Counted from the stretch's first letter, positions 1-62,700 are shown. The stretch is 64,000 nucleotides of DNA from Candidatus Sulfomarinibacteraceae bacterium (GCA_963715955.1 CAVQSQ010000012.1:211050-275049); one strand, 5' to 3'. Translations and numbers: made by a program. The notes: a model not told the origin generated them from the letters alone.

Positions 1-383
1 CTACCCGACCACCTTCATTCAGTCTGGTCACTTCCCGAAGGTGATGACGACTATCCTGCGCGATGGAGAAAACTCAAGGGGGTCTTTTCCCGCAATTACC
101 GCTCGATGGTGGTTCATCTGGTGAGGTGAACCCATCGCGACGGCGTAAAGGCGAGGTCGGCTTGTGGCAGCGGCGGTATTGGGAACACCGGATCCGGAAT
201 GCAGACGATTTTCGCCGCCACGTCGAATATACGCACTTCAATCCGGTCCGACACGGTTACGTTTCGAGAGCTGCGGATTGGCCGTATTCGAGCTTTCACC
301 ATCACGTCACAAAGGGGTGGATCGAACCGGACTGGGGAACCATCGAACCGGACGGACTTGTGGGCCTTGTCGCCGGAGAGTGA
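1..383 (+). CDS. REP-associated tyrosine transposase (RAYT, IS200/IS605-like HUH/Y1 enzyme); 5' end lies outside the window; apparent 1-nt frame break near 96-97
   Basis: Frame 1 from base 1 reads LPDHLHSVWSLPEGDDDYPARWRKLKGVFSRN, which includes the HUH motif HLH. Frame 3 continues LPLDGG...RRRKGEVGLWQRRYWEHRIRNADDFRRHVEYTHFNPVRHGYV..DWPYSSF, which includes the Y1 motif YxHxNPV. The frames join at AATTA (94-98). REP doublets follow immediately downstream. Confidence 0.8.
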
Positions 384-388
384 ATCAG

Positions 389-765
389 CTCTGATGGTGG
401 GCCGAGGCCCACCCTACCAGGCAACGGGTCCTTCGAGCCCGACGTAGGGTGGGCCTCGGCCCACCTTCAGAGCACTCGATGGACGCATGGCGCTGCAGCA
501 CGACGAGCGCGGTCCTCGATCCGCTGGGTTCGATACCTCTCCGTGAACGACTCTGATGGTGGGCCGAGGCCCACCCTACCAGGCAAGGGGTCCTTCGAGC
601 CCGACGTAGGGTGGGCCTTGGCCCACCTTCAGAGCACTCGATGGACCCATGGCGCTGCAGCACGACGAGGGCGGTCCTCGATCCGCTGGGTTCGATACCT
701 CTCCGTGAACGACTCTGATGGTGGGCCGAGGCCCACCCTACCAGGCAAGGTGTCCTTCGGGACCG
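389..765. repeat. REP-doublet (REPIN-like) tandem array, 162-bp unit, two full copies plus a partial third
   Basis: Units start at 389, 551 and 713. Each holds two inverted copies of GTAGGGTGGGCC(TC/GA)GGCCCACC, a hairpin of GGTGGGCC paired with GGCCCACC carrying a GTAG head, about 25 nt apart. The units differ by only a few substitutions. Confidence 0.9.
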
Positions 766-775
766 ACGAATGAGC

Positions 776-1237
776 TCACTCGGATGCGGAACAGCGTTCG
801 GCGTAGGTCTCGAGCACCGCGACCCAGCCGGTTTCGTAGTCCGCCCGGGTCTCTTCCGCGAGGTCCCCGAGAATCTCCCAGCCCCGGTGTTCGAGCTCGA
901 CGCGGGTCCCCTTTTTGGTGCCGATGAAGCGCAGTTCGATTTCCTGCGCGGTGGTGGCGTCCCTCCCCGGATGCCACGAAAAGACCACTCGGGCCGACGG
1001 CTCCCATGCCGTGATGGTGCCCCAAAGGTGAATCGTCCCGTCGTTGTGCGTCTCGTATATTCTGCCGCCGTCACGGCCCTCGAAATGACACGAGGCAGTT
1101 TCGGCCTGGCCGACCGAGTGCGTTGCCAGCGGCCACCAGCTGTCGATCTCATCGGTGAACAGACGGAAGGCGTCAGCCGGTCCACACGCCACCTCAACGG
1201 TCCTTCGAACCGGTTCAATGGTCGATTCAACGTTCAT
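776..1237 (-). CDS. SRPBCC / AHSA1 (activator of Hsp90 ATPase homolog 1-like) family protein
   Basis: Translation MNVESTIEPVRRTVEVACGPADAFRLFTDEIDSWWP... matches the family. GGAGG lies 5 nt upstream of the ATG at 1237. The gene overlaps the ArsR gene end by 11 nt, the usual ArsR-SRPBCC pairing. Confidence 0.8.
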   Translation of the reverse strand: MNVESTIEPVRRTVEVACGPADAFRLFTDEIDSWWPLATHSVGQAETASCHFEGRDGGRIYETHNDGTIHLWGTITAWEPSARVVFSWHPGRDATTAQEIELRFIGTKKGTRVELEHRGWEILGDLAEETRADYETGWVAVLETYAERCSASE

Positions 1238-2623: not shown

Positions 2624-3430
2624 ATGAAGACAGAAAATCCGATTCGACTCGCCGGCGCGCTCTGCATCGCATCGATAGCTGCGTTCTCGGTGCGCCCGGT
2701 CTCGGCACAGGACACGTTTCGACCCGAGATCGTCGTCGCCGATGCCGCCGCCCACTGCCCGTCGGTGGCAGGCACGTTCGTGGTTCTGCTCGACCCTTCG
2801 CGAGGCATGCTGCTGTTGTCGGGCGCCCCCTTTCCGGGTGGTCACGTCATCGGTGATGCCCGCGGCGGCGAGCTGATGGTGAACCTCCCCGGCGGCACCT
2901 CTTGGAAACTCGACCGCGCGGGTTCCAACGCCGGGCAAACACCGCTGTGGGGTGCGCGCTACCCGTTCCTCGCCGCCAGCGGGTTCGGGTGCGTCGCCTT
3001 CGACCGCGACAACTGGTCGTCGGAGGGCGACCTCGTCACCTATGCAAGGTGGGTGGTCGAGGAGATCTACCTCCAGCTGCCCGCCGAGGAACGTCAGCGG
3101 CGACCGGACTTCCGGATCTCCAACCGCGACGTGGCGTTCCGTGTGGAACGCGACGGCTACCGGCCCCTGGAGATGAGCGGCAGGGAGGGTTCGACCCAGG
3201 CCGGCCGGTATCAGGACAGCCAGAGGACCTACCTCTTCATGCCCTTCGTGCTCGACGAGACCGAGGGACGGGTTGCCGTTCGGGTCTCGACCACCGACGG
3301 CGCCTATTTCGACACCACCGCAAAGACCGTTCTCGGGTGGGCCGTGGCCGCGCCAGGAGATCCCGGATCGCTGGCCGACACGACCGTCGTGGTGTTCGTC
3401 GACGGCGCTGCGGACGCCCCGAAGGAGTAG
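2624..3430 (+). CDS. exported hypothetical protein
   Basis: N-terminal signal peptide MKTENPIRLAGALCIASIAAFSVRPVSAQD. Non-repetitive, protein-like composition. No family recognised. Confidence 0.6.
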   Translation: MKTENPIRLAGALCIASIAAFSVRPVSAQDTFRPEIVVADAAAHCPSVAGTFVVLLDPSRGMLLLSGAPFPGGHVIGDARGGELMVNLPGGTSWKLDRAGSNAGQTPLWGARYPFLAASGFGCVAFDRDNWSSEGDLVTYARWVVEEIYLQLPAEERQRRPDFRISNRDVAFRVERDGYRPLEMSGREGSTQAGRYQDSQRTYLFMPFVLDETEGRVAVRVSTTDGAYFDTTAKTVLGWAVAAPGDPGSLADTTVVVFVDGAADAPKE

Positions 3431-4546: not shown

Positions 4547-4554
4547 TCTACAGG

Positions 4555-6812: not shown

Positions 6813-8400
6813 TCACCAGCGGCGGCAGATGGTGCAGGCGTTGATACCGCCGACCCCCATGTTGATCTTGCCGGCGACGTCGCCTTCGATCTCCCGTTTC
6901 TCGTCGGCGACCAGACGGCTGAAGTAGGGCCGCACCTGTTCGTGGAACTCTTCGACCGTGGTGTCGACCGGGTGCAGCTCGCCCTTCGAGAAACCGATGT
7001 GCTGGGCGGTCAGCTCCCAGCCTCCGCACACCGACATGCCGTGGCCGAAGGATCCCTTGCGCGCGGTGAGTGCCGTGGTGTCGGGCACGACGGAAAGGAT
7101 GTTCTGCAGTTCGCTCCAGTCGCCCGGAGTCGCGGTGGCGTGCATGTCCCAGGTGGCCACCTCCCCGGGTGCCACGCCGGCCGTTTCCAGGGCCCTCCGC
7201 ATTGCCGTCCGCGGGCCCTCCTCGGACGGGGTGATGATGTGGTCCGCGTCCGATGACAGGGCCACGCTGAGAATCTCGAGACCGAGCGGTTCGAAACCGC
7301 GGCCCTTGAGGTAGTCGGCGTCGCCGACGATCCAGATGCAGGCCCCACCCGAAACGTGGGTGCCGCGGAATCCCGTCAGGGGTTTGGAGACTTCGCCGTC
7401 GTGCGACAACACCCTGGCTCCGTAGAACGCACCAACCGAGAGCGCGTGCGGTTCCGGGTCGGTCATGCCGAGAACCACCACCTTTGCCTGGTCCGAGCGG
7501 ATGGCATCGATCGCCATCTTGATCGCGACACCGAAGCCCGAACAGGCGGCGACCGGCGCGATGGCGGGCCCCGTGATGCCTCCGAGCATCGAAATCTGCG
7601 CGGCAGGTATGTTGGGGATGTTCCACAGCAACTTCGGGTCGACGGCGTTCCAGGGTTCGGTCGGGCAGCCGTACTCCTGATTCAGTTTTCGCCGGGTTGT
7701 CGCCTTGCGCCGAATCAGGTGGGATTTTCCGGAGTCGATGTCGCCGGTGATCCCGACCCTCTCAATCTCCTTCTGCCGTTCGAGGTAGGTCTTCAATCCG
7801 TCGCACCTCGCCACCCAGAATTCGTCCCATTTTTCCGCGGCCTCGTCGAAGTCGTCGCTCCACTGATCGAGGGTCTCCGGGTCCGGCGGCGCCGACAACC
7901 GCTGGCGGATCGCACTTTTCTCCCTGTCGTCGGACCTGCGGTATTCGGCGAGCTCGCTGTGGTGCTCGTCCTGGCACCAGAACCGGTTCCACCGCAATTG
8001 CGCACGGCGGTAGTGCTGGACGAGTTCGTACTGAAGAGGGAAGTCTCCCGAGCCCGGTCCCCACATAGACGTGGGCCTGCCCCCGAAGCTCTCTGAGCAC
8101 CTCGTCGATGCCGGGGTTCTGACCGAGCGCCTGGATGAAGGCGCCGACGGCGTATTTGACCGTGTTGCCCATCTTTTCCTGAAGCTGAGAAAACCTCCGC
8201 GGCTCGAACCGGGCCTCGATCCACGATCTGTAGTCCTCGAAATCGAATTCGGGTCGGCCGACCAGAAAGTTGCTGGGACCGAAGCCGTCGAAGGGCTCGA
8301 GCCAGGTGGTGGCCCGTTTCAGGTTGTCCTCGAAGGTCTCGATGTCGGGCGACTTCGGGGCGACGACGCCCCACCCGAAGATGCCGATGCGTTGTGTCAT
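6813..8400 (-). CDS. beta-ketoacyl synthase (KAS I/II-like) with a long charged insertion; split by a 1-nt frame break near 8048-8050
   Basis: The N-terminus MTQRIGIFGWGVVAPKS...AHVYVGTGLG lies in the frame of track ORF 7762..8487. The protein continues DFPLQYEL... in the frame of ORF 6813..8066. Catalytic triad motifs VAACSGF, DMHATATPGD and GSFGHGMSVCG are present. Confidence 0.8.
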
Positions 8401-8575
8401 ATGTGAATGCCTCTCGATATCGGTGGGACTCCACCAGCGGCAGAGGGTAGCAACGATTCCCGGCTTTCGAAAGACAAGGTGCGGCACGGCGACCGCCGCC
8501 TCGCACCACCCGCCCGCCCGTTTTTCCCCTTGTATTTCTGTTACGATACCGGAGGCGCCGCAACGGCGTCATCTC

Positions 8576-10793
8576 ATGTGGATGGGGGGTTCACAAATGC
8601 GCATCGTGCTATCGATTCTCCTTGTAATGCTACCGACCTTGATCGGCCACGCCGGCGAGGGCATGTGGCTGCCCGATCAGCTGCCGAAGCTCGGCGACCA
8701 ACTGGAGGCCGCGGGCCTCGACACACCACCCGAGGATTTTGCCGACCTCACCGGGCAGCCGATGGGGGCGATCGTGTCGCTCGGCGGTTGTTCGGCGTCG
8801 TTCGTTTCACCCCGAGGGCTGGTGGTGACCAACCACCACTGCGCCTACGGGACCATCCAGTACAACTCGACCGAGGACAAGAACCTGCTCACCGACGGTT
8901 TTCTGGCCGCCACCCCGGCCGATGAACTGGCGGCGGCGCCGGGATCGAGGATCTACGTGACGTTGGCCGTTGCAGACGTGACGGAAACGATCGCGTCGGC
9001 GGTGCCGGACGGCGCCGACGGATCCGCTCGTTTCGCGGCGATCGAAGAGGCCGAGAAGAAAGCTCATCGCTCAATGCGAGGAGACCCCCGGCCACCGCTG
9101 CAAGGTCGCTTCGTTCCACGGCGGCGCCGAGTACCGCCTCTACGACCAGCTCGAGATTCGCGACGTCCGTCTGGCCTACGCTCCGCCCTCTTCGATCGGC
9201 AAGTACGGCGGCGATATCGACAACTGGATGTGGCCCCGCCACACCGGAGATTTCTCGTTTCTGAGGGCGTGGGTGGGGCCTGACGGCCAACCCGCCGACC
9301 CCTCGCCGGACAACGTCCCGTTCCAACCGAAGCACTGGCTGCGGATCGGAACCGATGGCGTCGACACCGGTGATTTCGTGATGGTGGTCGGCTTTCCCGG
9401 CAGGACCAACCGCTACCGCCTGGCTTCGGAAGTGGCGGACGCGATCGAGTGGACCTACCCGCAGCGGGTCGCCAGCCGCCAGGAGAGCCTCGATATCATC
9501 GCCGCCGAGACCGCCGGCCGGCCCGATGCGGCCATCGCCTACGCGGCCACCGAGTCCTACCTCAACAACAGCCTCAAAAACGGCCAGGGCATGCTGGCAG
9601 GATTTGCGCACTCGAACTCGGTCGCCAGCAAACAGGCTCTCGAGGCCGAGTTCGCGGCCTGGATCGCCGCCGATGCCGAACGCCAGGCTGCCTGGGGCGG
9701 CGCTCTCGAGGAGGTCGAGGCCATCCTCGAGGAGCAACGGGCCCACCGCGCGCGCGACCAGGAGCTCTCGTCATTCAACTACAACCAACTGGTGTCGGCC
9801 TCGTGGATGGCCTACCGCCTCGCCCGCGAACGCGAAAAGCCCGATGCCGACCGCAAACCCGGCTACCAGGACCGCGACACGGACCGCATCAAGGCCCGGA
9901 TCAAGCGCTCGGCGCGAAGCTTCGACGCCCAGGTCGACATGGCCCTGATGCAGGACACCCTCGAAGACTACGCGGCGCTGCCGGAGTCGGAGCGACTGGT
10001 GGTCCTCGACGAGTGGTTCGGTCTCGGCGGCGACGTGCCGGCCTCGGAGTCCATCGCGTCCACCCTTCACCGCATGTACATGGCCACCGACCTCACCGAC
10101 CCCGAGGCCCGGATGGCGCTGCTCGATGCGGACCGCGCCACGTTGGAAGCCAGTGAAGACCCCTTCGTGGAGCTGGCCGTCGCCATGTATGACACCAAAC
10201 TCGCCCTGGAGGCCGAGGAGGAGATGCTCGACGGGCAGCTCCTCGAGGCGCGACCGCGGTACATGGAGGCGCTGCTGGCGTTCCAGGCCGACCGGGGCGT
10301 CGAGATCTACGCGGACGCCAACAGCACCTTGCGGGTGACCTTCGGCAACGTTCAGGGTTATGTGCCGCAGGACGCGGTGATCTACCTCCCCTTCACCACC
10401 GCCGAGGGCGTCGCGGCCAAGGCCACCGGCAAAGAGCCCTTCGACGCCCCGCAGGCCCTGCTCGAAGCGGTGGCCGAACGCGACTTCGGGCCCTACGCCT
10501 CCGACTCCATCAGAACCCTTCCGGTGAACTTCCTCTCCGACGTCGACACCACCGGCGGCAATTCCGGGTCGGCCACCATCGACAGCCAGGGCCGTCTGGT
10601 CGGGCTGCTCTTCGACGGCAACTGGGAGAGCATGATCGCGGACTGGGATTTCCTGCCCGAGGTGACGCGGTCCATCCACGTCGACGTCCGCTACGTCCTG
10701 TGGGTGATGGACCGCATCGATCACGCCTGGAATCTGTTGCAGGAGATGGGGGTCGAACCCGCCTTCAGGCCGACGGAGGGCGCCACCGACTAG
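8576..10793 (+). CDS. S46 family dipeptidyl-peptidase (DPP7/DPP11-like); split by a 1-nt frame break near 9059-9061
   Basis: GMWLPDQLP...GCSASFVSPRGLVVTNHHCA in frame 2. Frame 3 continues LIAQCEETPGHRCKVASFHGGAEYRLYDQLEIRDVRLAYAPPSSIGKYGGDIDNWMWPRHTGDFSF...GGNSGS. A signal peptide is present, and MRIVLS at 8597 is an alternative start. Confidence 0.85.
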
Positions 10794-10803: not shown

Positions 10804-10995
10804 ATGACCTACAACTTCGACCCCGAGCGTTGGTACGAGTCCCACCGCGCCGCCCTCGAAGGGCGGCGCGACCGGGGCGAGATCGGCGAAAGGGAGTTCA
10901 CCGCAGAGCTTCGGGACCTCGAGCGTCGGTACGAAGAAATGCTCGACCGCCTCGACGGCACGTTCACCATTCCCACGAGACCGACGAAACCGTAG
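10804..10995 (+). CDS. small hypothetical protein (63 aa)
   Basis: The ORF starts 10 nt after the S46 stop. It is charged and helical (ERWYESHRAALEGRRDRGEIGEREF...). There is no homology evidence. Confidence 0.4.
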   Translation: MTYNFDPERWYESHRAALEGRRDRGEIGEREFTAELRDLERRYEEMLDRLDGTFTIPTRPTKP

Positions 10996-11028
10996 CCAGC
11001 GCCGCAGAGCACCGCACCCTTTTCATGC

Positions 11029-11300: not shown

Positions 11301-11395
11301 AGCGGAGGGATCTGGGCCGCACTTCGCGGATCGGCGCTATCTGGAATCGACGCCCTGAGCGAGCACAGCAAGTCGAAGAGATCCCTCCGCTACGG

Positions 11396-11512: not shown

Positions 11513-11567
11513 TCCTCTGTTCGAGATTCGTTCGCGGATACTCGTCGCGTGCGGCGGAGGTGCCGGA

Positions 11568-39666: not shown

Positions 39667-42628
39667 TCAGAAGGAAAGGCGAAGTCCGAGACGAACGGTG
39701 GTCGGGTTCTGCCACATGCTGGCCGTGTTCCAGCCCGGGTTCGTCGGCGGGCGGTCGGCTGAACTTGCGGTTATCGGGGCGAAGTCCACGTTGGTGTCCC
39801 AATCGAGAACGTTGTAGGTCTGGCCGTCAACCGCCGTGGTGTACTGGATGTCGCGCTGCGTCTCGCCCTGGTTGTTGAAGACGCTGAAGATATCGAGCAG
39901 CACGTTGAGTTCGAGGGCCGAACCGAATTTGATGCGGATAACCGAAATGGAGGTCGGCTTCCCACTGTGCGTCGACGCGACCGAAGGCACCGCGTTCGGA
40001 GAGGTAGAACTCCCAGTTGTTGTAGTCAACGGAATAGCCGTAAGCGGTGATCGGCGTGCCGTCGCGGTAGAAAGCCGAGAGACCCGCACTGAGCCCGAAG
40101 TCGAAACGGTAGATGCCGTCGAACTTGATCTGGACCGGAATATCGTTGGAGAGCGGGCCGTAGTTGTTGACCGCGAAGTCCGCGTAGTCATAGGCCGAGT
40201 TCAGGTTCGGATCGAGTTGCCCCGTCGAGGCCTGGAAGAGACCGTCATAGTTGCCCTCGAGGCTCGACCACAACATCGACGCGATGAACTGGTAGTTGTC
40301 GGAGAAACGCTTCTGGAGCGTCACCTCGACGCCCTCGAATTTGCGCTCGGGGGTCAGGATCTCTCGCGGATCGGCGTAGTTGTAACCCCACGCAGTCGCC
40401 ATGGTGAAGGTCTCGGTCATCTCACCGTAGCTCGGATTGCCGATGTAGTAGTCGCCGTCGAGGGTCAGGGCATCTTCGATCACCCGTTTGAGGTCGCGGG
40501 CGATGTATTTGGCACCCACCGCCCAGTTGGGTGCGAACTCGTACTCCGCGCCAATGATGGCCTCTTCGAGGTACTGGCCCTTGACGCCCGGATCGACCCT
40601 CGAGAACCCACCTCCGAGGACCCTGGAACCTCTGACCGAAAGGTCGGCCGCCACGTCTTCGGGGTTGTCGGAGAGATTGTAGGACCACAGCGAGATCTCG
40701 CCGCCGAAGGCGCGGATCACGATGTCCATGGGGATCGTCTCGTAGAAATATCCCCAGTGGCCGTAGAGCTTGGATTGGCCGTTGCCCAGAAAGTCCCACA
40801 CGAAACCGATTCGCGGAGCGATGTTGTCGTCGATATCCGCCGAAACCTCGCGATCGGCGTTGTACAGCTTCTGCTGCCCGAACCGGACGCCCAGGTTGAG
40901 GGACAGATTGGATCCGACCTGCCAGGTGTCCTGCAGGAAGAACGCCATATTGTCGGAGATCGTGTCGACGAGCTGCGGCGCCAGGATATCGGCCGTGGTC
41001 GCGGTCTCCGGATCGAGGTTGGGGTCGCTGACAAAGAAACGATGACGGAAGTAGTACGGCTGTCCCTGGCAGTCACGGGTATCGGAGTCGATGCAGTCAA
41101 AGCGGTAGATCCGCTGGCCGGTGCCGCCGTTCCAGACCTCGGAGTTGATCGAAATATCTTCATACTCGTAGCCGAACTTGAACTCGTGGGACCCCGCAAG
41201 ATTGGCAACGAACCACGACATGTCGGCGTTGTACTGTTCCCGACCGAACTCGTTGTTGTTGAAGTTCCCGAACCCGGCCTGTCGTTGGTGGGCATTGCCG
41301 TCGGCATCCCATCCCCACACCGTTGTTCCGTCGCCGAGCGGATCCGTAAAATCAATGTAGCCCACCGTCTCCGCACCGGGACCGCCCTGCAGGAACTTTT
41401 CGTCGTGGGCCGCCACCCGAGCGGTCAGAACGATGTTCTGGCCCAAGACGCCATCGTAGTTTGCGGAGTAGTTCGTGCCCCCGGTCTCGACCAACCCGGT
41501 GAAGTGGAGGGTCGTAGCGGCCAGCGATTGACCGGCGATGACCCCGCTGTTTTCCGTGGGGTCGCCGAACACTGATCCCGCCAGCGAGTGGTTGGCGGCG
41601 ATACGCCAGGTCAGCTTGGCGGCCCAGAGATCGCCGACGGTCGACTGAGGGATCTGCTCGCCCCTGTAGGTGCCGCCCTCGATGATCGAGGAGAAGTCCT
41701 TGAGAACCTCGAGGTTGTTCTCGTTGTCCACCCGGTCGTAGGCGGCGAAGAACCACAACGTGTCCTTGAGAATGTAACCTCCGAGATCGAACCCGTAGTC
41801 AGACCGGGTGAACGAGGTCTGCTTGAAGGAGGCGTTGACCGCGCCTACGTCCGGCGCGGCTTTGAGGGAAGCCTGCAATGAGTCCGCGTCGTAGTAGCCG
41901 AAGACATCGCCGTGGAACTCGTTGCCGCCCGACTTGGTCACCACGTTGATGACCGAACCGGTTGCCCGCCCGAACTCGGCGTTGTACGAACCGGTCTTGA
42001 CCTGGACCTCGTCGATGAACTCGAAGTTCAGCTGGGTGCCTTGCGTCCCGAACTCGATTCCGGTGGTGTTGGCGCCGTCGATGTAATAGGAATTTTCTGC
42101 GCCGGTCGAGCCATAGAAAGTCTGACCGGAGGCATCGGCCTGGGCCCCCGGAGTGACATTCGCAACTGCCGTGTAGTTGCGCCCGGTCGGCAGGTCGTCG
42201 TAGAAGTCCGAGGACAGGTCGACACCGATTGTCGTGTCGGAGGTGTTGACCAACGGAGTCTCGGAGGTCACCACGACCTCGTCCGAGAAGGCCGGCGTCA
42301 TGATGGCGTCGACACGGGTCGTCGACCCCATGCTGACGCGCATTTTCTCCTGCGACCGTGCCTGAAAGCCCGAGAGATTGAAGTTGACCGCATACTCGCC
42401 CGGCGGCAACGCCAGAAAGCTGTAGGCCCCTTCGTCCCCGGTCACGGTGGCTTGCGGGCCCTGAAGCGCTGCCGAAACCAGGTTCACGGTGACACCTGGA
42501 AGCCCGACGCCGGACTCGTCGACCACATTGCCCCGGATCTCACCCCTGGTTGCCTGCGCGGAGGCCAGGCCAGCGGCAAGACAAACAGCCGCTAATACAA
42601 CGAGAATTCTTCCGAATAACTTCATCAT
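39667..42628 (-). CDS. TonB-dependent receptor-like outer-membrane protein with N-terminal carboxypeptidase-regulatory-like domain (Oar type); split by a 1-nt frame break near 39936-39937
   Basis: Signal peptide. GNVVDESGVGLPGVTVNL...GEYAVNFNLSGF (CarboxypepD_reg). Plug motifs (YYIDGANTTG, NVVTKSGGNEFHG). The C-terminal barrel end ...TVRLGLRLSF lies in the frame of track ORF 39667..40191. Confidence 0.85.
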
Positions 42629-42978: not shown

Positions 42979-43539
42979 ATGGTGTCGTTGACCGCACTCT
43001 GGCTCCCGATCGTGCTCTCGGCGGTGGTTGTCTTCATCGCCAGCTCGGTCATTCACATGGCGCTCAAGTACCACAACTCGGAGTACCGGCAGCTTCCGGA
43101 CGAAGGTCCGTGCTCGGCGCGATGCGCAACGGCAAGATCGCGCCCGGTATTCTATGCCTTTCCGTACGCGGGAAGCATGAAGGAAATGGGAACGCCCGGA
43201 CATGATGGAGAAGTACGCCCAGGGCCCGGTCGGGACGATGAACGTCAACCCGAGCGGGCCGCCAGCCATGGGCAAGGCTCTCGGTCTGTGGTTCGCCTTC
43301 ACGCTGGTCGTCGGCGTCTTCGCGGGCTACCTCGCGAGCCGGACTCTCGCCCCCGGCACCCACTACCTCCAGGTCTTCAGAGTCGGTCGGATGCTCGAGC
43401 TTCATGGCCTATTCCTTCGCGTACTTTTCGGACTCCATCTGGAAGATGAAACCGTGGAGCATGACGCCTCAAGCACGTCTTTGACGGACTGGTCTACGCT
43501 CTGCTCACGGCCGGTGTCTTCGGGTGGCTGTGGCCTTAA
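42979..43539 (+). pseudogene. small conserved membrane protein (about 185 aa, uncharacterised family) broken by five 1-nt indels
   Basis: GGAGG lies upstream of the ATG at 42979. The pieces read MVSLTALWLPIVLSAVVVFIASSVIHMALKYHNSEYRQLPDEG / VLGAMRNGKIAPGI / YAFPYAGSMKEMGTP / MMEKYAQGPVG...THYLQVFRV / CSSFMAYSFAYFSDSIWKMKPWSMT / LKHVFDGLVYALLTAGVFGWLWP-stop, across three frames. Confidence 0.6.
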
Positions 43540-43641
43540 CCTGCCGGGAGTGACGGGCAGGATGGGGCGGTGTGGCAATGGCCGACCGCCGTGCGGCCTG
43601 GCAATGAGGCCCAGGCTTCGGTAACCCCTCATTGCCCATTG

Positions 43642-44382: not shown

Positions 44383-44434
44383 GTGGGTGCAGTGTAGCCT
44401 GGATCTCTGAGGTTCTCTCCTCGGAACCGGCTGT

Positions 44435-46341
44435 TCATGAGTCAATCTGTTCCGCGTCTTCTTCAACCACATCGCCTCGGAGCGAACTCGAGTCCCAGGC
44501 GGCGTCGAGGTCGGCGCCGAGGTCTTCGAGATCTGCACTCATCACCTTCTCGAGAGCCGCGATCTGTTGTCTGACCAGGTGAATATAGGCCGTGGCGTCT
44601 TCCCTCTGTCCGCTCATCTCGCGCACCGCCGCCTCGTCGTGGCGGCGGAACCGCCGCACCCGGCGCAACGCCTCGAAGGCCGGCACTCCGAGTTCGCTCA
44701 TCACGTCGCCCCCGATGCGCAACGAGCTGTCGAGAGTCTCCCGGTAGACCCGATCCACCCCGGCCTCCAGAAGCTCATAGGCGTGGGTCCTGCCCACCGC
44801 ACGACAGAAGACAGCGAGGTGGGGGAAGTGTTTCTGCGCGGTTTCGGCGATCTCGAGGATCCGCTCCGGGTCGTCGAGGGCGATCACCAGCACCCGAGCG
44901 GTGTCGGCGCCCGCCGACCGCAGAAGATCGAGCCGCGATGCGTCGCCGTAGAAGACCTTGTGCCCGAGTTTGCGGAGCATCTCGACCTGGTCGGAATCCA
45001 CCTCGAGAACCGTCGCGCCGATTCCCGCGGCGCGCAGCAGACGTCCGATGATGGTGCCGACCCGGCCGTAGCCCGCGATGATCACCGGGTTCGACTCTTC
45101 GATGGCATCGGGCTCGCGTTCCGCTTTCTCGCGGGTACCGAACCGCGGCTGCACCAGGCGCTCGTTGATCAACATCAGGAGCGGCGTCAGGGCCATCGTC
45201 AATGCGACCACTGCGATCAGCGGTGTCGTGATTCCGATCGACAGCACGCCCTGTTGGGTGGCGAAGGAGAACAGCACGAACGCGAATTCGCCCGCCTGGG
45301 CGAGCGAGAAACTGAACAGGAGATTCTGATCCTGTCCGAGCCCGAAAACGCGCCCCAGAATCACCAGGATGATGAACTTGACGACGATGAGACCGGCCAC
45401 CAGAGCCCCGATGAGACCCGGGTGCTGCGCGATCTGGCCGAAATCGATCGAGGCCCCGACGGCGATGAAAAAGAGGCCGAGCAGCAGGCCCTTGAAGGGC
45501 TCGATATCGCCCTCGAGCTCGTGCCGGTACTCGCTGGTCGCCAGCACCACCCCCGCCAGGAAGGTCCCCAGCGCCGGGCTCAAACCGACCTTGGCCATGA
45601 GGAGGGCGATCCCGATCACCAGCAGCAGGGCCGCCGCGGTGAAGACCTCCGGCACGTGCGCCTTGGCGATGAAGCGAAAGGCCGGCCGCATCACCAGCCG
45701 GCCGCCGATCACGATCGCGGCCACCGCCGCAACCACGACCAGCGCCGCCGCCCACCCCGGCAGCCCCTCGACCCAGGTCGTCGAGTGACCGGTATTGACC
45801 GCCGGGTGGGCGCTCCCGCCGTGCGCCAGCAAGGGCAGGATGGCCAGCATCGGGATCACCGCCAGATCCTGAAAGAGCAGAACCGAAAAGGCACTGCGGC
45901 CGCCGCCGGTCTTCATCAGGCCCTTCTCCTGCAGGGTCTGCAGCACGATGGCGGTCGACGACAGCGAGAGGATGAGCCCGACGGCGAGGGCACTCCGCCA
46001 GTCGAGTCCGGCGCCGAGACCGATCGCGGTGAAGACCGCGGCGGTCACGCCCACCTGCAGCCCGCCGAGCCCGAGGATCGAGCCCCGCAACCGCCACAGA
46101 AGAGTCGGCTGCAGCTCGAGCCCGATCAGAAACAGCATCATCACCACGCCGAACTCGGCGAAGTGCAGGACGTCCTGGCCGTCCTCGCCCTACCAGACCG
46201 AGGGCGAACGGGCCGATGGCGATCCCGGCCATGAGATAGCCGAGCACCGAGCCCAGACCGAGTCGCTTGGCGATGGGCACCGACACCACCGCGGCCGCGA
46301 GATAGATCAACGCCTGAAAGAAGAAGCCCTTCGCCGTGCAT
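44435..46341 (-). CDS. kefC: glutathione-regulated K+ efflux antiporter KefC/KefB-like (CPA2 plus KTN/TrkA-N); two 1-nt frame breaks near 46327-46329 and 46188-46190
   Basis: The ATG at 46341 has GGAGG upstream (MHGEG). The next frame reads [45 protein letters not shown]. The third frame reads [27 protein letters not shown]...[16 protein letters not shown]. Confidence 0.85.
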
Positions 46342-46344: not shown

Positions 46345-46972
46345 TCAACCTCCCAGCACAGCGTCGAGATCGGCGTTGATGCGATTCAGACCCGCTGTCA
46401 GGTCCGCCGTCACACGTCCATCCCGCAGGGCTTCGAGAAGCCGCCGATAGTCCGCCGCCTCGCGGTCGATTCCGTCGCGGGTGAGGGCGTGGGTGCCGTG
46501 GACGACGAAGGGCGGCAGGAAGTCCATCCCACAGAGCCGAGCGGTCTGCTCGATCGGCGCCAGCAGCTGCCGCATGGTGAAACGATTCGCGCCGTCTTGC
46601 GAGTACGATTCTTCCGGGGCCCCGGTCGACACGACGTTGAGCAGCGTCTTGCCTTCGAGAGCGTGGCCGTCGTGGCCATAGGCCCATCCGTGTTCGAGAA
46701 CCAGATCCTGCCACTCCTTGAGGATGGCCGGAGTCGAGTACCAATAGAACGGGTGCTGGAAGACCACCACGTCGTGATTCAGAAGCAGCCGCTGTTCGCG
46801 GGCGCACGTCGATGTCGAAATCCGGGTACTCCTGGTAGAGATCGTGGACCACCACCCCGTCGAGGCCGCGGGTGGCCTCCACCAGCCGGCGATTTACGCG
46901 AGACCTCCGCAGCGCCGGGTGGGCGAAGAGGACGAGAACAGTCCGAGGTATTCCTGCATGCATCCTCTTCAT
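46345..46972 (-). CDS. kefF: KefF/KefG-like flavodoxin-fold NAD(P)H oxidoreductase (Kef ancillary subunit); 1-nt frame break near 46799-46801
   Basis: [19 protein letters not shown]...[12 protein letters not shown] in one frame, then [42 protein letters not shown] in the next. The stop lies 3 nt before the kefC ATG. Confidence 0.8.
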
Positions 46973-52970: not shown

Positions 52971-53151
52971 TCAGCCTTTTGCAAAAACACCCGCAGTGAA
53001 AAGAACCGCGGCACGATGACACAGAGAAGGGAGGGGATAAACCCCTCCCCTACGGCTTTTATGGACGGCATCCGTTGTTACAGTCGATTCTGAACACCGT
53101 AGGGGCGGGGTTTATCCCCGCCCACTCATGTCGAGTTTTACAAGAGGCTCA
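52971..53151 (+). repeat. MITE-like element, copy 2 of 3 (same family as 12960-13140)
   Basis: Collinear with copy 1, including both GTAG hairpins and the TIRs TCAGCCTTTTGCAAAA ... ACAAGAGGCTCAG. Confidence 0.85.
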
Positions 53152-54563: not shown

Positions 54564-54668
54564 CGATGTGCGGCGGAGGTGCCATTTTCAACATTGTTGG
54601 ACGAACGAACACTCCTGTCGGCACGGCGACGCGGGCCAACAATGTTGAAGGTGGCTCCTCTCGGGAAC
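54564..54668. repeat. long-hairpin MITE-like element, copy 2 of 3
   Basis: GTGCGGCGGAGGTGCCATTTTCAACATTGTTGG ... CCAACAATGTTGAAGGTGGCTCCTCTCGGGAA. Confidence 0.85.
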
Positions 54669-55384: not shown

Positions 55385-55625
55385 ATATGCAGTCTCGAGA
55401 CCGAGCCCCGCAGGGGCGACAAAATGTAGCCCGGGGCGCAAGCCCCGGGTCCGCGGCAGAAAGTGAGTCCAAGCCGCGGAGCGGCGACAGACAGCCGCCT
55501 CCCACAGCCGCGGCTCACCGCGCAGCCAGAACCTGTCGCCCCTCTGGGGCTCTTCATTCTTGGTTCCGTGGTTGCCGGGGCTCACGCCCCGGCCTATTCT
55601 CTACCGCCGCTCCGCGGCTTCCTCT
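55385..55625. repeat. composite GC-rich hairpin-module repeat (same family as 16860-17085)
   Basis: GAGCCCCGCAGGGGCGACA (55403), AGCCGCGGAGCGGCGACA (55472), and their complements at about 55533 and 55603. GCCCGGGGCGCAAGCCCCGGG pairs with GCCGGGGCTCACGCCCCGGC. Confidence 0.8.
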
Positions 55626-55655: not shown

Positions 55656-55855
55656 TGAGCCTCTTGCAAAATTCAACCTGGGCGGGGATAAACCCCGCCC
55701 CTACGGCATTCAGGAACTCAGACGGAATTTAGACAAAACTTTCCCTTTGAGAGACTTAGCTTCTCAAACGTCGTAGGGGAGGGGTTTATCCCCTCCCATT
55801 TCGGTGTCTCTTTGGTGCGGTTCCATCCACTGCGGGTGTTTTTGCAAGAGGCTCA
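55656..55855 (-). repeat. MITE-like element, copy 3 of 3 (inverted, more diverged)
   Basis: TGAGCCTCTTGCAAAA ... GGCGGGGATAAACCCCGCCCCTAC ... GTAGGGGAGGGGTTTATCCCCTCCC ... TTTTGCAAGAGGCTCAG. Confidence 0.8.
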
Positions 55856-57246: not shown

Positions 57247-59346
57247 TCAATCGGCTGCTGGACCTCGCCTCGCCGGACCGCGGGTCCCGATCGCGGCAAA
57301 GGCGACGACCGCATCGCCTCCGGGCGACCCATCGCCGCTCGGGAGGACGGCGATCTTCAAGGGAGCGGTCAGTTCACCATCGAGGGCGAGACCGTTGCCA
57401 TCGACGACGCTGTCGCTGACGGTCAACTCGTAGTGTCCCCCGGCGAGTGGTGTCTGCGACGTGACGGTCGCCGTCATGGTGCCGGCATCGTAGGTCACCG
57501 CGACGTCGTACTCGGCGCCGCCGATGCGCTGGAGGGTGAAGGCCGAGCTTTCCAACACCACGTCCTCGTGAAACGTCAATGTCATCGACAACGGCTCGCC
57601 GGCGGGCAGGACCGAGCCAGGTGCGGGATTCACCGCCACCACCTTTGGCGGACCATCGGTGAAGGCTGCCTCGTCAACCGACCTGGTGAGAATCCAGACG
57701 TCGGGATCGAGAGCGAGAGCATCAACCGGCGCCGAAACCGGGACGAGATAGTGCTGGGTGGTTTCGGAGTTCCACACTGTCAGCCGCCGCCGCTGCCCAT
57801 CCTCACCGATCTCGATTTCGAGGGGCATGGCAAACGCGCCTTCGGTCTGGGTCTGCTCGAGCGAGATCTCGAGATAGCGCTGGCCTGCGATCTCGTGTTC
57901 CTGATGACCATACCTGTAGGCCGGCGCACCGCCGCCGTAGACCCACTCGTCGAAGAACCACTCGAGATCGCCCCCCCAGACCTCCTCGGCGACCTGGCGA
58001 AGGTCTTCAGTTGTCGCGGCGCTGTACTCGAAGCGATCACGGTAGGCATCGAGGATCTCGAAGAACGTCTCGGTCCCCACGATGCCCCGCAGCATGTGCA
58101 CCACCCACGCACCCTTTCGATAGCTGTAGTTGCCAGAGAAAATCCTGCCGACATCGACCGGGTTTTGGATGTAGATCGCCTCGTCGACCTCGTCCGGCCG
58201 CGCCTGCGACATGTAGCCGCGAAGACCTTCCGGATTCGATGTCCCGGATTGGTACTCGAACCACAGGGCCGCCGAGTACGTGGCAAAGCCCTCGTTGAGC
58301 CAGATGTCCGACCACGTTGCACAGGTCACCATGTCGCCCCACCACTGGTGGGCCGCTTCATGGGCGGTCAGGTTCTCCGAAAAAGCGTTGTCGCCACCCT
58401 GCCCGGTGGCGGTCTGGTGCTCCATGCCGCCGCCGAACGGGAAGTTGTAGATGGCGTACTTCTCCTCGACAAACGGATACAGACCGAACAGATCGCTGAA
58501 GGTGCCCAGCATGTCCACCGATCTTCGCCAGGCGTTTCGGTTCTCGGTTGTGTCCCGTTCCGGCCAGAGGAAGAAATCGACCGGCATCGAACCGCCGCTG
58601 TAGTTGAAATTCTCACTGAAAGTGTTGAAGCGCGTCGCCGCAAAGGCGAAGAGATAGGGGCTTGTCGGGTAGTCGGTCGCCCAGCGGAAACGCCGCCGTT
58701 CACCTGAAAGCGGGGTATTGCTCACGCGAACACCATTCGCGACCACGGTCAGGTTCGACGGCACGGTGATCAGCAGTTCGCCGGTCGCCTTGTCGCGGCT
58801 GTCCTCCTTGACCGCCCACCAGGTGTAGGAAAACCACGGTTCGGACAAGGTCGAGACGACCGGCCAGTCACCCTGGGTCCCGAACACGATCGAGGAGAGA
58901 CCGGTGGTCACCGGGTACCCCTCGTAATCGACGACGAGATCAAAGTCGTCACCGGTGTCACAGGTCCGGTCCAGATCGACTTCAACTGTGGCCTCATCCA
59001 AACGCGTCCAGTCGGCGGCACCGCCGTCCAGCTCCACCTCGTTGATGGTCAGGGAGGAGTGGAGCCAGAATCGGAAGGCCGTCACCCCGTCCTCCACGCA
59101 CGTCACCGTCATCGTGGTGCGGCCGTCGATGAACTGGGTCGTGGGTTCGACCTCGAGCTCGATCCGGTAGTGCTCGACGTCGGTCTGCAGCGTGAGTGGA
59201 TCGTTGAAGCTCTTGAGCTGCAGCTCCCTCGCCGCCGCCGCCCGCTCGACAGACGCGGTCTTGGCCCGCGAACACAACTCGGGCGAATCGGCCTGGGCGG
59301 AAACCTCAGCCACGTCGACCGGGGGCGTCAACCACGGCGCGACCAC
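57247..59346 (-). CDS. M1 family metallopeptidase (aminopeptidase N-like) with C-terminal Ig-like domains
   Basis: GGMEHQT, HEAAHQWWGDMVT (HExxH) and WLNEGFATY motifs. The N-terminal start is uncertain (see findings). Confidence 0.85.
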   Translation of the reverse strand: MVAPWLTPPVDVAEVSAQADSPELCSRAKTASVERAAAARELQLKSFNDPLTLQTDVEHYRIELEVEPTTQFIDGRTTMTVTCVEDGVTAFRFWLHSSLTINEVELDGGAADWTRLDEATVEVDLDRTCDTGDDFDLVVDYEGYPVTTGLSSIVFGTQGDWPVVSTLSEPWFSYTWWAVKEDSRDKATGELLITVPSNLTVVANGVRVSNTPLSGERRRFRWATDYPTSPYLFAFAATRFNTFSENFNYSGGSMPVDFFLWPERDTTENRNAWRRSVDMLGTFSDLFGLYPFVEEKYAIYNFPFGGGMEHQTATGQGGDNAFSENLTAHEAAHQWWGDMVTCATWSDIWLNEGFATYSAALWFEYQSGTSNPEGLRGYMSQARPDEVDEAIYIQNPVDVGRIFSGNYSYRKGAWVVHMLRGIVGTETFFEILDAYRDRFEYSAATTEDLRQVAEEVWGGDLEWFFDEWVYGGGAPAYRYGHQEHEIAGQRYLEISLEQTQTEGAFAMPLEIEIGEDGQRRRLTVWNSETTQHYLVPVSAPVDALALDPDVWILTRSVDEAAFTDGPPKVVAVNPAPGSVLPAGEPLSMTLTFHEDVVLESSAFTLQRIGGAEYDVAVTYDAGTMTATVTSQTPLAGGHYELTVSDSVVDGNGLALDGELTAPLKIAVLPSGDGSPGGDAVVAFAAIGTRGPARRGPAAD

Positions 59347-59460
59347 GACCAGAGCATCGTAAGGAACTTCAGCATCGAGTCTCCATCAACTGGACTTCTA
59401 CCGCTCCATGGAGTTACGCGGAAATCAGCCCGCGGTTCCGCAACCTGGATCCTCAGCCCG

Positions 59461-59712
59461 CACATGGCAGCCGGGACGGCTGCCCCACAAACCCTTTCAG
59501 AAACGGCTTGCTGGGCAGACACATGGCACGCGGGACGCGTGCCCCACAAACCGTTTCCGGGCCGTTTTGTGGGGCAGACACATGGCAGCGCGGGACGGCT
59601 GCCCCACAAACCCTTTCAGAAACGGCTTGCTGGGCAGACACATGGCACGCGGGACGCGTGCCCCACAAACCGTTTCCGGGCCGTTTTGTGGGGCGGCCGT
59701 CCCGGCTGCCAT
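59461..59712. repeat. about 119-bp tandem duplication (2.1 copies) built from GGCAGCC-GGGAC-GGCTGCC / GGCACGC-GGGAC-GCGTGCC hairpins
   Basis: Units start at 59461 and 59579. Related single hairpins lie at about 63148, 63246 and 63446. Confidence 0.9.
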
Positions 59713-59724
59713 GCGATTGATGAA

Positions 59725-62700
59725 CTAACGAGCGACGACCACCCTCGGCGCCTGGCTCTCTTCGAGCATCTGTTCGAGCTCGGGCAGCTGTTCGGTGATC
59801 ACCGCCTCGCAGCTCGGCGACGGAGCCGTCGAGCTCGGCTTCGAGCAGCGCGAAGACCTCTCGCGAACTCGTGTAGGGTGCGCCGAGGGCGCTTTCGACG
59901 ACGCTCTGCAGATTCAGGAGTTGATTGTCGATCTGGGGCTGGAAATTCAGCACGTCCTGGCTCGACTCGTTCTTGACCTGGGTGAGCTTTTCTTCGATCG
60001 CGGTCAGGGCCTTCGAAATCTCGTCGGCCTTTTCGGTGATCGCGTCATCATCCACGTGCGCTGAAACGGCCTCGATCTGGCCGCGCACGTCGCGGATCCG
60101 TTCGATGGTCTCGTGCGATCGGGTCAGGGCCTGCCAGATCTCGCGCGCAAGGGCGAACTGCTCGTCGAAGGCCGCCTGTGAGATGTCCGTCCGCGGGTCC
60201 TGGACCACGTCGAAATTCGCAGTCTCGGACCACTCGCCCACCGTCAGCCGCACCTGGTAGCTGCCGGGCGGCACCGTCGGTCCGCCGGGCCAGCCCCACA
60301 GGACCGCGTCCTCGACGAGACCGGCATCCGGCAGGGCGAGGTTCCACACCGCACGGTTGGCGCCGGCGCGGGCATCGAGCAGCGGTGGTTCGGCCAATTC
60401 GGGGAAGAAGCGCCGCCACGGGCTCGGCGCGCGTTTCTCGGGCTCCTGGCTGGAGAGGCTTCGCAGCACCTCGCCCTCCGCATCGAGGAACTCGAGCTTC
60501 ACTTCGTCGGCGTCTTCCTCATCGAGACCGGCCGGCAGCACGTAGTGGACGACCGCGCCGAAGGGCGGGTTCTGACCCACCGGGCCGCGGCCGCCGCCGC
60601 CCGATCCGTCGACCCAGCGCACGACCGTGCGCGGAGTGAAGAGGCGGGGGGTTGCGGCAGTGGCCTCGTCAGCCATCTGATGAAGAACCGTCAGATCATC
60701 GAGGATCCAGAACGACCGCCCCTGGGTGGCCACCGCGAGATCGCCGCGTTTGACGGCGAGGTCGGTGATCGGCGTGACCGGCAGGTTGAGTTGGAGAGGT
60801 CTCCACGTCGCGCCGTCATCGAAGGAGACGTACATCCCGAATTCGGTACCGGCGTACAGGAGGCCCTTGCGTTCGGGGTCCTCGCGCACCACCCGCACGA
60901 AGTGGTCGGCGGGGATGCCGTTGCGGCCGTCGGTCAAGCGCTTCCAGGTGGCGCCGAAGTCGTCGGTGCGGAAGATGTAGGGCTGGAAATCGTTCTCGCG
61001 ATATTTGTGGACCGCGATGAACGCACGTCCAGGGTCATGCGCAGACAACTCGATCGCGTTGACTGTCCCCCACTCCGGCATGCCGGCCGGAGTGATGTTC
61101 CGCCAGTTGGCACCGCCGTCATCCGAGATGTGGACGAGTCCGTCGTCGCTGCCTGCCCACAGGAGGCCGGCTCGCATCGGGGACTCCTCGAACGCGAACA
61201 CCGTGCCGAAGACCTCGACACCGGTGTTGTCGCGGGTGATCGGCTCGCCCGCGTAGCCCTGTCTGGACTCGTCATCGCGGGTGAGGTCGGGGCTGATCTC
61301 CGTCCAGTTGCGGCCTTCGTCGGTGGACTTCAGAACCACGTTGGCGCAGTGGTAGAGCACCGACGGATCGTGGGGCGAGATTCGGATCGGCGAGTTCCAC
61401 TGGAAGCGGTACTTGAGGTCCTTCGCCTGCTGCCCCACCGCCATCTGCGGCCACGCCATCACCTCCTCGGAGTGCTCGAGAGCGCGGTCGAAGCGGCTGA
61501 TCGAGCCGCCGTAGCAGCCACCGTAGGTGATATCGGGGTCGCGGGAGTCGACCGCCACCGTCGACGTTTCACACCCGGCCGGTTGGTACCAATCCTCGCG
61601 ATCGATGCCTCCGGGGGCGCGGCTCGGAATCGCCACTGCGCTGTTGTCCTGCTGCCCACTGTAGAGCCAGTAAGGCTGCTGGTCGTCCACCGTCACCCGG
61701 TACATCTCGGCAGTGGGTTGGTTGGACTGCACCGACCAGGTGCGGCCGCCGTTGAAGGTGACGTTGGCGCCGCCGTCGTTGCCCTCGATCATGTTCGTGG
61801 GATCGTCGGGGTTGATCCACAGCGCGTGGTTGTCGCCGTGCGGCGTGCGGATGGGTTTGAAGTTCTGGCCGCCGTCGATCGACTTCCAGAACATGACGTT
61901 GAGGACGTAGACCGTGTCGGCGTCTTTCGGGTCCGCCTCGAGGTGGGTGTAGTACCAGGCGCGCTGACGCAGTTCCCGTTCGCCCGAAACCAGCCGGAAC
62001 TTCTCGCCGCCGTTGTCGGAGCGGAAGAGCCCTCCCTCTTCGGCTTCGACCAGGGCCCACACCCGGTTGGGTGCAGACGGCGACACCGCGACCGCGATCC
62101 GGCCCATGACGCCCTCGGGCAGCCCTTCGGCGAGCTTCACCCAGGTGTTGCCGCCATCGTTGCTCTTGAAAAGCCCGCTGCCGGGACCGCCGGAGATCAT
62201 GTTCCACGGCGTGCGGCGGGCCTGCCACATGGCGGCGTAGAGGTTGCGCGGGTTGGCCGGGTCCATGGCGAGATCGACCGCACCCGATTCGTCCGAAACA
62301 AAGAGGACCTTGGACCAGGTGAGACCGCCGTTGGTGGAGCGGTAGACCCCGCGCTCGGCATTGGGCCCGAACACGTTGCCGAGGACCGCCGCGTAGACCA
62401 GGTCCGGGTCGTTCGGGTGGACCACGATCCGCCCGATCTGACCGGCCTCCGGCAGTCCGATGTGGCGCCACGTGTCACCGCCGTCGGTGGACTTGTACAT
62501 ACCGTCGCCGGGAGATACGTTGCCGCGGGGGCACGCGGAACCGGTGCCCACGTACACCACGTTGATGTCCGACGGTGCGACCGCGATGGCGCCGATGGAG
62601 CCGGCGCCGAACGCGTCGCCGGGACGTCGTTCCCAGCGAACGTCATCAGGCAGCCCGCCGATCGGCTCGCGCAGCAGGCCGAGCCCGGCCAGGGTGGGGT

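Follow-up and report, generated by a model that had tools for sequence, protein, structure and literature searches.

Single-base frame breaks in ten genes of a 64,000-nucleotide metagenomic stretch are probably residual errors of a long-read assembly

The stretch of 64,000 nucleotides analysed here (the window) carries 15 single-base frame breaks spread over 10 of its ~55 genes. The breaks are real features of the deposited sequence, twelve of them consisting of one extra base and three of one missing base. Comparison with related sequences argues that they arose as one-base consensus errors left in a long-read metagenome assembly and not as mutations in the organism, a reading to which we give a probability of roughly 0.85 and whose technical cause we infer. 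The value of this result is practical, not biological. Left as they stand, 10 of the ~55 genes of this public MAG stretch would be annotated as fragments or pseudogenes, and for this uncultured Acidobacteriota lineage completeness estimates, pseudogene counts and any claim of 'gene decay' would be distorted. The affected genes are as follows.

1..383, plus strand: REP-associated tyrosine transposase (RAYT), truncated at the 5' end by the edge of the window; one base missing at ~96-97
6813..8401, minus strand: beta-ketoacyl synthase-like gene (KAS); one extra base at 8046
8597..10793, plus strand: Peptidase S46; one extra A at 9059-9061
39667..42628, minus strand: TonB-dependent receptor (TBDR); one extra base at 39933-39936, ~90 codons upstream of the stop
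42979..43540, plus strand: conserved small membrane protein (smp) of 185 aa without a Pfam family; five breaks, one a missing base (43106) and four of them extra bases (43149, 43198, 43385 and 43467)
44435..46341, minus strand: kefC-type K+/H+ antiporter; extra bases at 46187-46191 and 46323-46329
46345..46972, minus strand: kefF-type flavodoxin-like gene; one extra base at 46805
57247..59375, minus strand: Peptidase M1; N-terminal signal-peptide region out of frame at ~59351-59354 (one missing base or two extra)
59725..62992, minus strand: BNR/sortilin-like glycosyl hydrolase; one extra base at 59809-59810, ~25 codons upstream of the stop
63670..64000, plus strand: family-2 glycosyltransferase (GT2), running off the window; one extra base at ~63730-63732

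An earlier note on this DNA had listed 13 breaks and two further possible ones. All 13 are present, each at most ~10 nt from where it had been placed, and so are the two possible breaks, in the M1 peptidase (~59351) and in GT2 (~63730). The tally given for the 13, 11 removals and 2 additions, is correct, and the observation that the conserved protein resumes immediately in the adjacent frame holds at all 15 sites. Comparing the junctions with orthologous loci, as that note had proposed, confirmed every break through intact orthologues or a family profile. A homology-free detector, a codon-usage Viterbi model with the window's long ORFs as training set, placed same-strand frame switches at 8055, 9059, 39949, 46190, 46804 and 59809, and recovered the smp breaks at lower penalties only.

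Other candidates raised by the model were rejected. At low penalty, the events at 10791, 14618, 35925, 46353 and 50432 are ordinary gene junctions, and the one at 1268 (minus strand) reflects a pair of genes, that of an ArsR regulator and an AHSA1/SRPBCC gene that follows and overlaps it. A candidate at 32328-32365, suggested by the model together with one related assembly (L084), was cleared because homologues of 405-412 aa span 100% of the window's 407-aa ORF; the L084 copy is 340 aa long, and it is this copy that is truncated, not the window's. The interval from 9.1 to 39.9 kb, described earlier as free of breaks, yielded no other candidate and contains none.

The best GTDB species representative is distant (70% aa identity in kefC), and closer relatives, including L081 to L087, were reached by exact-protein cluster look-ups. 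In DNA alignments with intact orthologues, each break is a lone unpaired 1-nt indel. One-base edits restore orthologue or near-orthologue lengths, giving 528 aa for KAS, 731 for S46, 634 for kefC and 185 for smp (orthologues 528, 731, 631-634 and 186 aa, respectively). RAYT passes from frame 0 to frame 2 at ~nt 96, and with one base added it matches NF047646 (E = 1.7e-37) in a single stretch across the junction, residues 1-97 corresponding to profile positions 55-146 of 146. KAS as deposited is an open fragment of 417 aa only; at least 11 members of its 90% cluster have the repaired length, and the base at 8046, whose best-fit placement lies outside any run, is the sole indel inside the CDS relative to L083. 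The same assembly holds a 731-aa S46 orthologue, which aligns with a single unpaired indel, and the repaired S46 protein covers PF10459 positions 1-697 of 698 in one stretch. In the TBDR gene the extra base is the only indel relative to the intact L082 orthologue of 985 aa, and the repaired C-terminus reads ...RLGLRLSF.

Alignment with L085 reveals all five smp indels, and alignment with L082 the first three; the repaired protein aligns ungapped with 186-aa homologues, at 90% identity over 100% of the length. Relative to L081, L082 and L085, the CDS body of kefC contains no indels other than its two extra bases, and the repaired protein gives one unbroken match to Pfam Na_H_Exchanger (positions 4-374 of 375) that spans the first junction. 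Against the same three assemblies, the base at 46805 is the sole frame-disrupting indel of kefF (one alignment, with L085, has an additional in-frame 3-nt gap at 46943); once repaired, kefF covers Flavodoxin_2 positions 2-196 of 198 in one stretch, its orthologues being 207 aa long. In the M1 peptidase, MLKFLTML and ...VVVAPW...ADSPELCSRAKTASVERAAAARELQLKS lie in different frames, and the orthologue in L087 continuously reads MAKFLTVLLAVAPW...DSPELCSRAKTASVERAAAARELQLKS. The BNR gene shows a single unpaired indel against both L087 and L086, and its repaired product of 1088 aa is 100% covered by homologues of 1087-1094 aa (best identity 88%). Likewise, GT2 gives MTAYPAPAAPIPTPPETRRTP and, one frame over, PPPTLIEATPRGRSRRKVSAIVTTYNE, where its L087 orthologue has the continuous MTAYPAPAAPVPAPPENRPAPRPPTLVDAIPRSRNRRKISAIVTTYNE.

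Programmed ribosomal frameshifting, or phase variation at contingency loci, is an extremely improbable explanation for such sites. Nothing beyond the frame changes themselves speaks for it; at every site the orthologues stay in one frame, there are no long simple-sequence tracts but only runs of 2-3 nt, and five of the sites fall in one 185-codon gene.

To place the errors, the repair at each site was chosen by minimum mismatch to the orthologue. Half of the 12 extra bases are thereby located uniquely outside runs (kefF 46805, kefC 46191, KAS 8046, TBDR 39935, smp 43149 and BNR 59809). The remaining 6 are compatible with a run, as are 49.7% of simulated random insertions, and thus there is no homopolymer enrichment. 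The earlier note had seen a homopolymer-length signature in the short run found at every break; this is the level expected by chance. In the window, 46% of bases sit in a run of at least 2, and random positions have such a run nearby in 85% of cases at ±2 nt and 92% at ±3 nt, making "each break at a short homopolymer" an uninformative diagnostic in a genome of 64% GC. Of that note's interpretation, the preference for artefact over real mutation stands, on the evidence of orthologues, selection and sister assemblies, and the homopolymer rationale does not. No shared sequence motif, such as a methylation motif, was seen when the contexts of the error sites were inspected by eye.

Natural 1-nt indels in bacteria are deletion-biased and concentrated in runs. 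The spectrum in the window is the opposite, with 12 insertions against 3 deletions and run-compatibility at the random level, which weighs against the view that all or most of the breaks are genuine frameshifts in a genome accumulating pseudogenes. We regard this view as very unlikely, even though the breaks are unambiguous in the deposited sequence, affect 10 of about 55 genes, and, as in genuine bacterial frameshift pseudogenes, interrupt the frame by 1-nt indels with the downstream part still recognisable. A prxU-like gene in the window also carries a real-looking internal deletion, which is in frame, measures ~460 nt, has its junction at 33575-33590 and is beyond a simple base-calling error. 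Relaxed selection, for which the earlier note had suggested a look at dN/dS, is absent from the broken genes: after repair their values are 0.08-0.16 (leaving out KAS, which gave no valid estimate), compared with 0.07-0.23 for intact neighbours. Conserved residues are retained, single genes take repeated hits with no nonsense or radical change, and gene density and GC content are typical of a free-living genome. In lacking relaxed selection, in their spectrum and in showing multiple hits with no other damage, the window's genes differ from genuine pseudogenes.

Sister assemblies carry the same type of defect in other genes, which also opposes real mutation. Wherever L082, L083, L085, L086 and L087 cover one of the sites, the frame is unbroken; the exception is L081, which has an extra base at the same TBDR spot as the window. 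The short-read or long-read nature of the relatives was judged from record names, 'contig_N' being Flye-style. L085 (k141_...) and L087 (JGI), with short-read-style names, are intact wherever they cover, whereas Flye-style 'contig_N' relatives from ENA have similar lone 1-nt indels, mostly insertions, in different genes. These amount to ~9 in L081, all in TBDR, 2 in L082, all in a permease, and 21 isolated ones (15 insertions, 6 deletions) in L084 over those portions of the window's coding sequence that align, a density in sister assemblies of up to ~1 per kb. L086 has no fragmented gene calls over 23 kb, and L082, L084 and L086 share the source ERZ25039600. One could alternatively suppose real and recent indels, produced in a Thermoanaerobaculales-like clade by an insertion-biased, run-independent single-base mutator that strikes different genes in each sister population, and caught before selection or drift added other damage; we consider this very improbable.

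The distribution of breaks along the window is uneven, as had been noted before. Nine breaks lie within 6.9 kb (scan p ~4e-4) and five within 400 nt (p < 5e-5). When one event is counted per gene, however, the clustering is not significant (p = 0.39); the unevenness is real, and the affected genes themselves are not significantly clustered. The clustering stems from repeat hits in smp, with five in a 560-nt gene, and in kefC. Our best guess for the cause of the smp hits is a low-coverage patch, one of the options raised in the earlier note.

The earlier note also offered genuine local decay. In a mixed picture of this kind, most breaks would be assembly errors and the five in smp would be real, the gene being on the way to the loss already seen in sister lineages. 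The density of five hits in 360 nt far exceeds the contig-wide rate, and the smp/TMEM175 segment is structurally variable among the relatives. The L082 copy of smp is a remnant, without its 5' end and ~136 internal nt and interrupted by a premature stop, and in L081 only ~50 nt are left. Because large deletions removed smp in the L081/L082 lineage, real decay of this gene alone is not absurd. The window's smp differs from these truly decayed copies, which show large deletions and a lost start. Once repaired it retains all 23 invariant columns and, of the 75 columns conserved at 90% or more among 117 homologues, all but one (in functional homologues the median number missed is 2), and its dN/dS against L085 is 0.088. 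Substitutions and 1-nt indels in neutral DNA are assumed to occur at ~10:1. For five indels this ratio predicts dozens of substitutions, several at conserved sites, and none are seen; in addition, four of the five indels are insertions, and no larger deletion of the kind found in L081 and L082 is present. Taken together, these points disfavour decay, and we judge a mixed picture of this sort unlikely.

A narrower version of the artefact reading, with a defined trigger, would place the errors where co-existing strains differ, the consensus writing both alleles of a SNP as adjacent bases. All six uniquely placed extra bases in the window adjoin the third position of a four-fold degenerate codon in the form XY-N1-N2 with N1 ≠ N2, and L084 shows the same pattern at 8 of 9, against a null expectation of 65%. 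In S46 the window has AAGA where L083 has AAG and L084 has AAA, and in BNR it has CTGC where L087 has CTG and L086 has CTC; the extra base common to the window and L081 sits at the same variable TBDR site. Indel errors from nearby allelic variants are documented for collapsed assemblies (PMC8445201). Against this, the three uniquely placed events of L081 all follow codon position 1, and the idea arose post hoc; pooled, the pattern is found in 15 of 19 cases versus 65%, a rough estimate of p ~0.15, and therefore the codon-position signal is not robust. We hold the merging of alleles to be a possible but doubtful origin of the breaks.

The window resembles a collapsed mixed-haplotype consensus (Cosentino et al. 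2021, PMC8445201) in that several related populations occur together in the same samples (L082, L084 and L086 in ERZ25039600), a number of the extra bases have the look of adjacent alleles, and errors are patchy. It differs in that the published case is a diploid eukaryote and the window would involve strain mixtures in a metagenome.

Under the favoured reading, residual consensus error, the source would be an uncultured population of Thermoanaerobaculales-like Acidobacteriota assembled from long metagenomic reads, the use of long reads being judged from the 291,641-nt length of the source contig and from the nearest relatives. Its consensus would have gained 12 spurious bases and dropped 3, in a manner essentially random with respect to homopolymers and patchy along the contig, the patchiness probably reflecting low or mixed coverage. 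The worst patch would be the 5 errors in 360 nt of smp, within the structurally variable segment; since this segment varies among related populations, local read support there was probably thin or mixed. Such errors have precedents. Residual indels in long-read-only bacterial and metagenome assemblies inflate pseudogene counts, and nanopore-only MAGs keep frameshift errors that do so, the more when coverage is low (PMC8103633); where mixed alleles are collapsed into one assembly, spurious indels appear near variants (PMC8445201). As with residual long-read errors, lone 1-nt indels split conserved genes, their density varies between contigs of one assembly, and orthologues and short-read-style assemblies are intact. 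The classic account of long-read errors puts the weight on homopolymer length, mostly on deletions; those in the window are insertion-biased and no more often in runs than random insertions. An insertion bias unlike the typical nanopore homopolymer deletions is a point against the consensus-error reading, as are the deletion in the prxU-like gene and the loss of smp from L081 and L082.

A tool for detecting and correcting such errors, Kastor, has been described (PMC12007338). A homopolymer-only correction would get about half of the sites in the window wrong, whereas orthologue-guided repair yields conserved residues. Some of the repairs within homopolymers proposed in the earlier note make the protein worse: the CCC repair in kefF gives DVRREQ where the orthologues have DVAREQ, and the TT repair in smp gives PGIY where PGFY is found in 7 of 7 aligned homologues.

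All frame breaks listed in the earlier note proved to be present, and their count rose from 13 to 15, in ten genes, with an extra base at 12 and a missing base at three. Three-frame reading at every listed site allowed the protein to be traced from one frame to the next. A homology-free codon-usage Viterbi model, trained on the window's long ORFs and given explicit skip-one and skip-two-base states, switched frame on the same strand at 8055, 9059, 39949, 46190, 46804 and 59809 under a high penalty, and also recovered the sites in smp (a small conserved membrane protein gene) once the penalty was lowered. We further aligned the window with syntenic loci of related populations (L081-L087), reached via cluster members and ~80-92% identical to it in nucleotides; the closest of these belong to other species-level populations, not to the strain of the window. 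The alignment demonstrated that every break is a solitary single-base indel on the window side, and two breaks that had been offered as tentative, in GT2 and M1, are genuine in the sequence. Besides the break in RAYT (REP-associated tyrosine transposase), the positions are:

8046, extra base, KAS (beta-ketoacyl synthase-like)
9059, extra base, S46 peptidase
39933-39935, extra base, TBDR (TonB-dependent receptor, 39667..42628, minus strand)
43106, missing base, smp (42979..43540, plus strand)
43149, 43198, 43385 and 43467, extra bases, smp
46187-46191 and 46323-46326, extra bases, kefC
46805, extra base, kefF
~59351, frame shift, signal-peptide region of M1 peptidase
59809, extra base, BNR/sortilin-like glycosyl hydrolase
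~63730, extra base, GT2 (family-2 glycosyltransferase)

Once repaired, S46 has 731 amino acids and matches PF10459 positions 1-697/698 in a single stretch, kefC and kefF give single-stretch matches to Na_H_Exchanger and Flavodoxin_2, respectively, that span the junctions, and the match of the RAYT fragment to NF047646 is unbroken over its junction. The open KAS fragment has 417 amino acids, and at least 11 members of its 90% cluster have 528, the length of repaired KAS. Repaired smp (185 aa) is covered gaplessly over 100% of its length by thousands of homologues, the listed ones mostly of 185-186 aa and the top one among the matches listed 90% identical; homologues of repaired BNR (1088 aa) have 1087-1094 aa and cover all of it (100%). 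From 9.1 to 39.9 kb, a stretch of 30 kb described previously as free of breaks, no further ones turned up, and the sole candidate there (32328-32365) was cleared, the host gene being full length relative to its homologues. A candidate at 1268 was rejected as two neighbouring genes.

The earlier note blamed errors in homopolymer length, each break being repairable at a short run, and this rationale failed. Runs of at least 2 hold 46% of the bases of the window, 85% of random positions have such a run inside ±2 nt, and the frame can be restored by any nearby single-base edit, so that repair at a short run is almost guaranteed. With each repair edit picked to leave the fewest mismatches with the orthologue, six of the 12 extra bases were uniquely non-run (kefF 46805, kefC 46191, KAS 8046, TBDR 39935, smp 43149, BNR 59809) and the other six run-compatible. 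Of 10,500 random base insertions into intact aligned gene pairs, classified identically, 49.7% were run-compatible, indicating that the extra bases are not enriched in runs. Some run repairs worsen the protein, giving DVRREQ in kefF, where orthologues have DVAREQ, and PGIY in smp, where 7/7 aligned homologues have PGFY.

The artefact interpretation itself was supported. Genuine decay predicted relaxed selection, and none was seen: repaired broken genes (a set without KAS) gave dN/dS of 0.08-0.16 against their orthologues, enclosed by the 0.07-0.23 of ten intact genes under the same procedure. Repaired smp keeps 23/23 invariant columns and 74/75 columns conserved at 90% or more among 117 homologues, exceeding the conservation of their median functional member. 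In neutral DNA the substitution-to-indel ratio is assumed to be ~10, so that by the time a neutrally evolving gene had gained five indels, it would be expected to hold many substitutions too. Spontaneous 1-nt indels in bacteria are deletion-biased and concentrated in runs, and the window has 12 insertions, 3 deletions and no run preference. The same defect recurs at other places in sister assemblies; the relatives compare as follows:

L081 (ERZ25039603 contig_25881, as L083), Flye-style name: ~9 lone indels, in TBDR only
L082 (ERZ25039600), Flye-style name: 2 lone indels, in a permease-Usp gene only
L084 (ERZ25039600 contig_80653, also an NCBI deposit; nearest relative found, at most 92% nucleotide identity), Flye-style name: 15 lone insertions and 6 deletions where it aligns with coding regions of the window; KAS, S46, a kinase and others are split
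L086 (ERZ25039600, sample common to L082 and L084), Flye-style name: 23 kb without a fragmented gene call
L085 (ERZ27271186 k141_3156232) and L087 (JGI contig), names suggesting short-read assembly: all covered break sites intact

Such contrast between contigs inside one assembly is the expected product of coverage-dependent consensus error. Frameshift errors of this kind are documented in nanopore-only MAGs and are worse at low coverage (PMC8103633). The insertion bias of the window does not match the usual picture of nanopore homopolymer deletions. Because selection, conservation, indel spectrum, sister assemblies, short-read-style relatives and literature agree, we put the probability that the 15 breaks are an assembly artefact, a matter of assembly quality and not a biological feature, at roughly 85%.

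The uneven distribution pointed out earlier stood when breaks were counted (scan test, 9 within 6.9 kb, p ~4e-4; 5 within 400 nt, p < 5e-5) but not at one event per gene (4 affected genes within 6.9 kb, p = 0.39), indicating no regional excess of damaged genes. The anomaly is that of multiple breaks inside smp and, less so, kefC, and the clustering boils down to smp, a single small, poorly supported gene. Real decay of smp is conceivable, given that the structure of the 42.9-44.5 kb segment varies among relatives: L085 has smp intact, L082 holds a true relic (2953-3283; start-codon region replaced, ~136 nt deleted, premature TGA), L081 retains only ~50 nt (about 3216-3270), and a stretch of ~590 nt with a TMEM175-like ORF (43878-44464) is present in the window and absent from relatives. 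The decayed copies of L081 and L082, however, bear no resemblance to that of the window. Under the artefact reading, co-occurring strains may differ at this segment, leaving few or mixed reads for the window version and hence a local error burst. Gene content also differs elsewhere, and several of the frame breaks are no more than ~0.5 kb away from a junction of this kind:

46.9-48.4 kb, plus strand, two window-specific genes, kefF to DUF6694
32.2-33.4 kb, 405-aa membrane protein gene that the window shares with L084 only
L081 17521-18514 and L083 8850-9903, GSHPx and DUF4003, absent from the window

As a possible mechanism, extra bases might be two synonymous alleles written adjacently in the consensus, since many resemble paired alleles (GT-G-C, GGG-A, AAG-A, CC-G-C, GGT-A, CTG-C). 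Both alleles exist among relatives for S46 (L083 AAG, L084 AAA) and BNR (L087 CTG, L086 CTC), and spurious indels close to allelic variants have been reported for a collapsed diploid assembly (PMC8445201). Moreover, one variable TBDR site carries an extra base in both the window (39933-39936) and L081 (6193), within 3-4 nt, and is intact in L082; by rough estimate this coincidence has a chance of ~1% given the other indels of L081, and it points to something at this particular site that triggers errors, perhaps a polymorphic Val/Ile-Pro codon pair. Unique placements adjoin the third codon position in 6/6 cases in the window and 8/9 in L084, against 65% in the simulated null, but in 0/3 in L081, and the pooled 15/19 is by rough estimate not significant.

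Window proteins have cluster mates of ~84-96% amino-acid identity that are, by name, Thermoanaerobaculales or Acidobacteriota MAG proteins. Among GTDB species representatives the top match of kefC, in a Ca. Sulfomarinibacteraceae MAG, reaches only 70%, indicating an uncultured lineage without a close reference genome. GC content is ~64% over the 64 kb. Four intergenic Acido-Lenti-1 RNA motifs (RF01687), in two divergent pairs and above gathering score, agree with an Acidobacteriota origin:

16865-16910 and 17037-17082
55404-55449 and 55574-55619

A peroxiredoxin-glutaredoxin fusion gene (33437-33716, plus strand) has an in-frame TGA at the expected peroxidatic Cys (DFTPT-TGA-ST), kept in L081, L082 and L084, where each is called as 44 aa + 200 aa; a weak match to the selenoprotein PrxU family suggests that it may be a selenocysteine codon. 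Directly after this TGA the window copy lacks ~460 nt in frame, and with them most of the Prx domain plus any SECIS, through either a true deletion or mis-assembly.

Repeats occur at several sites:

389-768, three tandem 162-nt units directly downstream of the RAYT gene
38257-38312, diverged lone copy of the 162-nt unit
10983-11340, 11396-11512 and 11569-11620, dense tandem repeats (intergenic 10995-11611): 40-nt period x7, 39-nt unit x3, 8-nt CGTTCCAA-type array
12960-13140 and 52971-53151, 181-nt dispersed repeat with GGGAGGGGATAAACCCCTCCCC hairpins, 91% identical; partial third copy 55680-55798
39384-39507, 54568-54667 and 63241-63500, other dispersed families
59472-59575 and 59591-59694, 104-nt repeat in the M1-BNR spacer, two 100% identical copies, 119 nt apart

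The 162-nt units look like a REP array, because each holds a GGTGGGCCGAGGCCCACC palindrome. The 104-nt copies are flanked by the frame breaks at 59351 and 59809.
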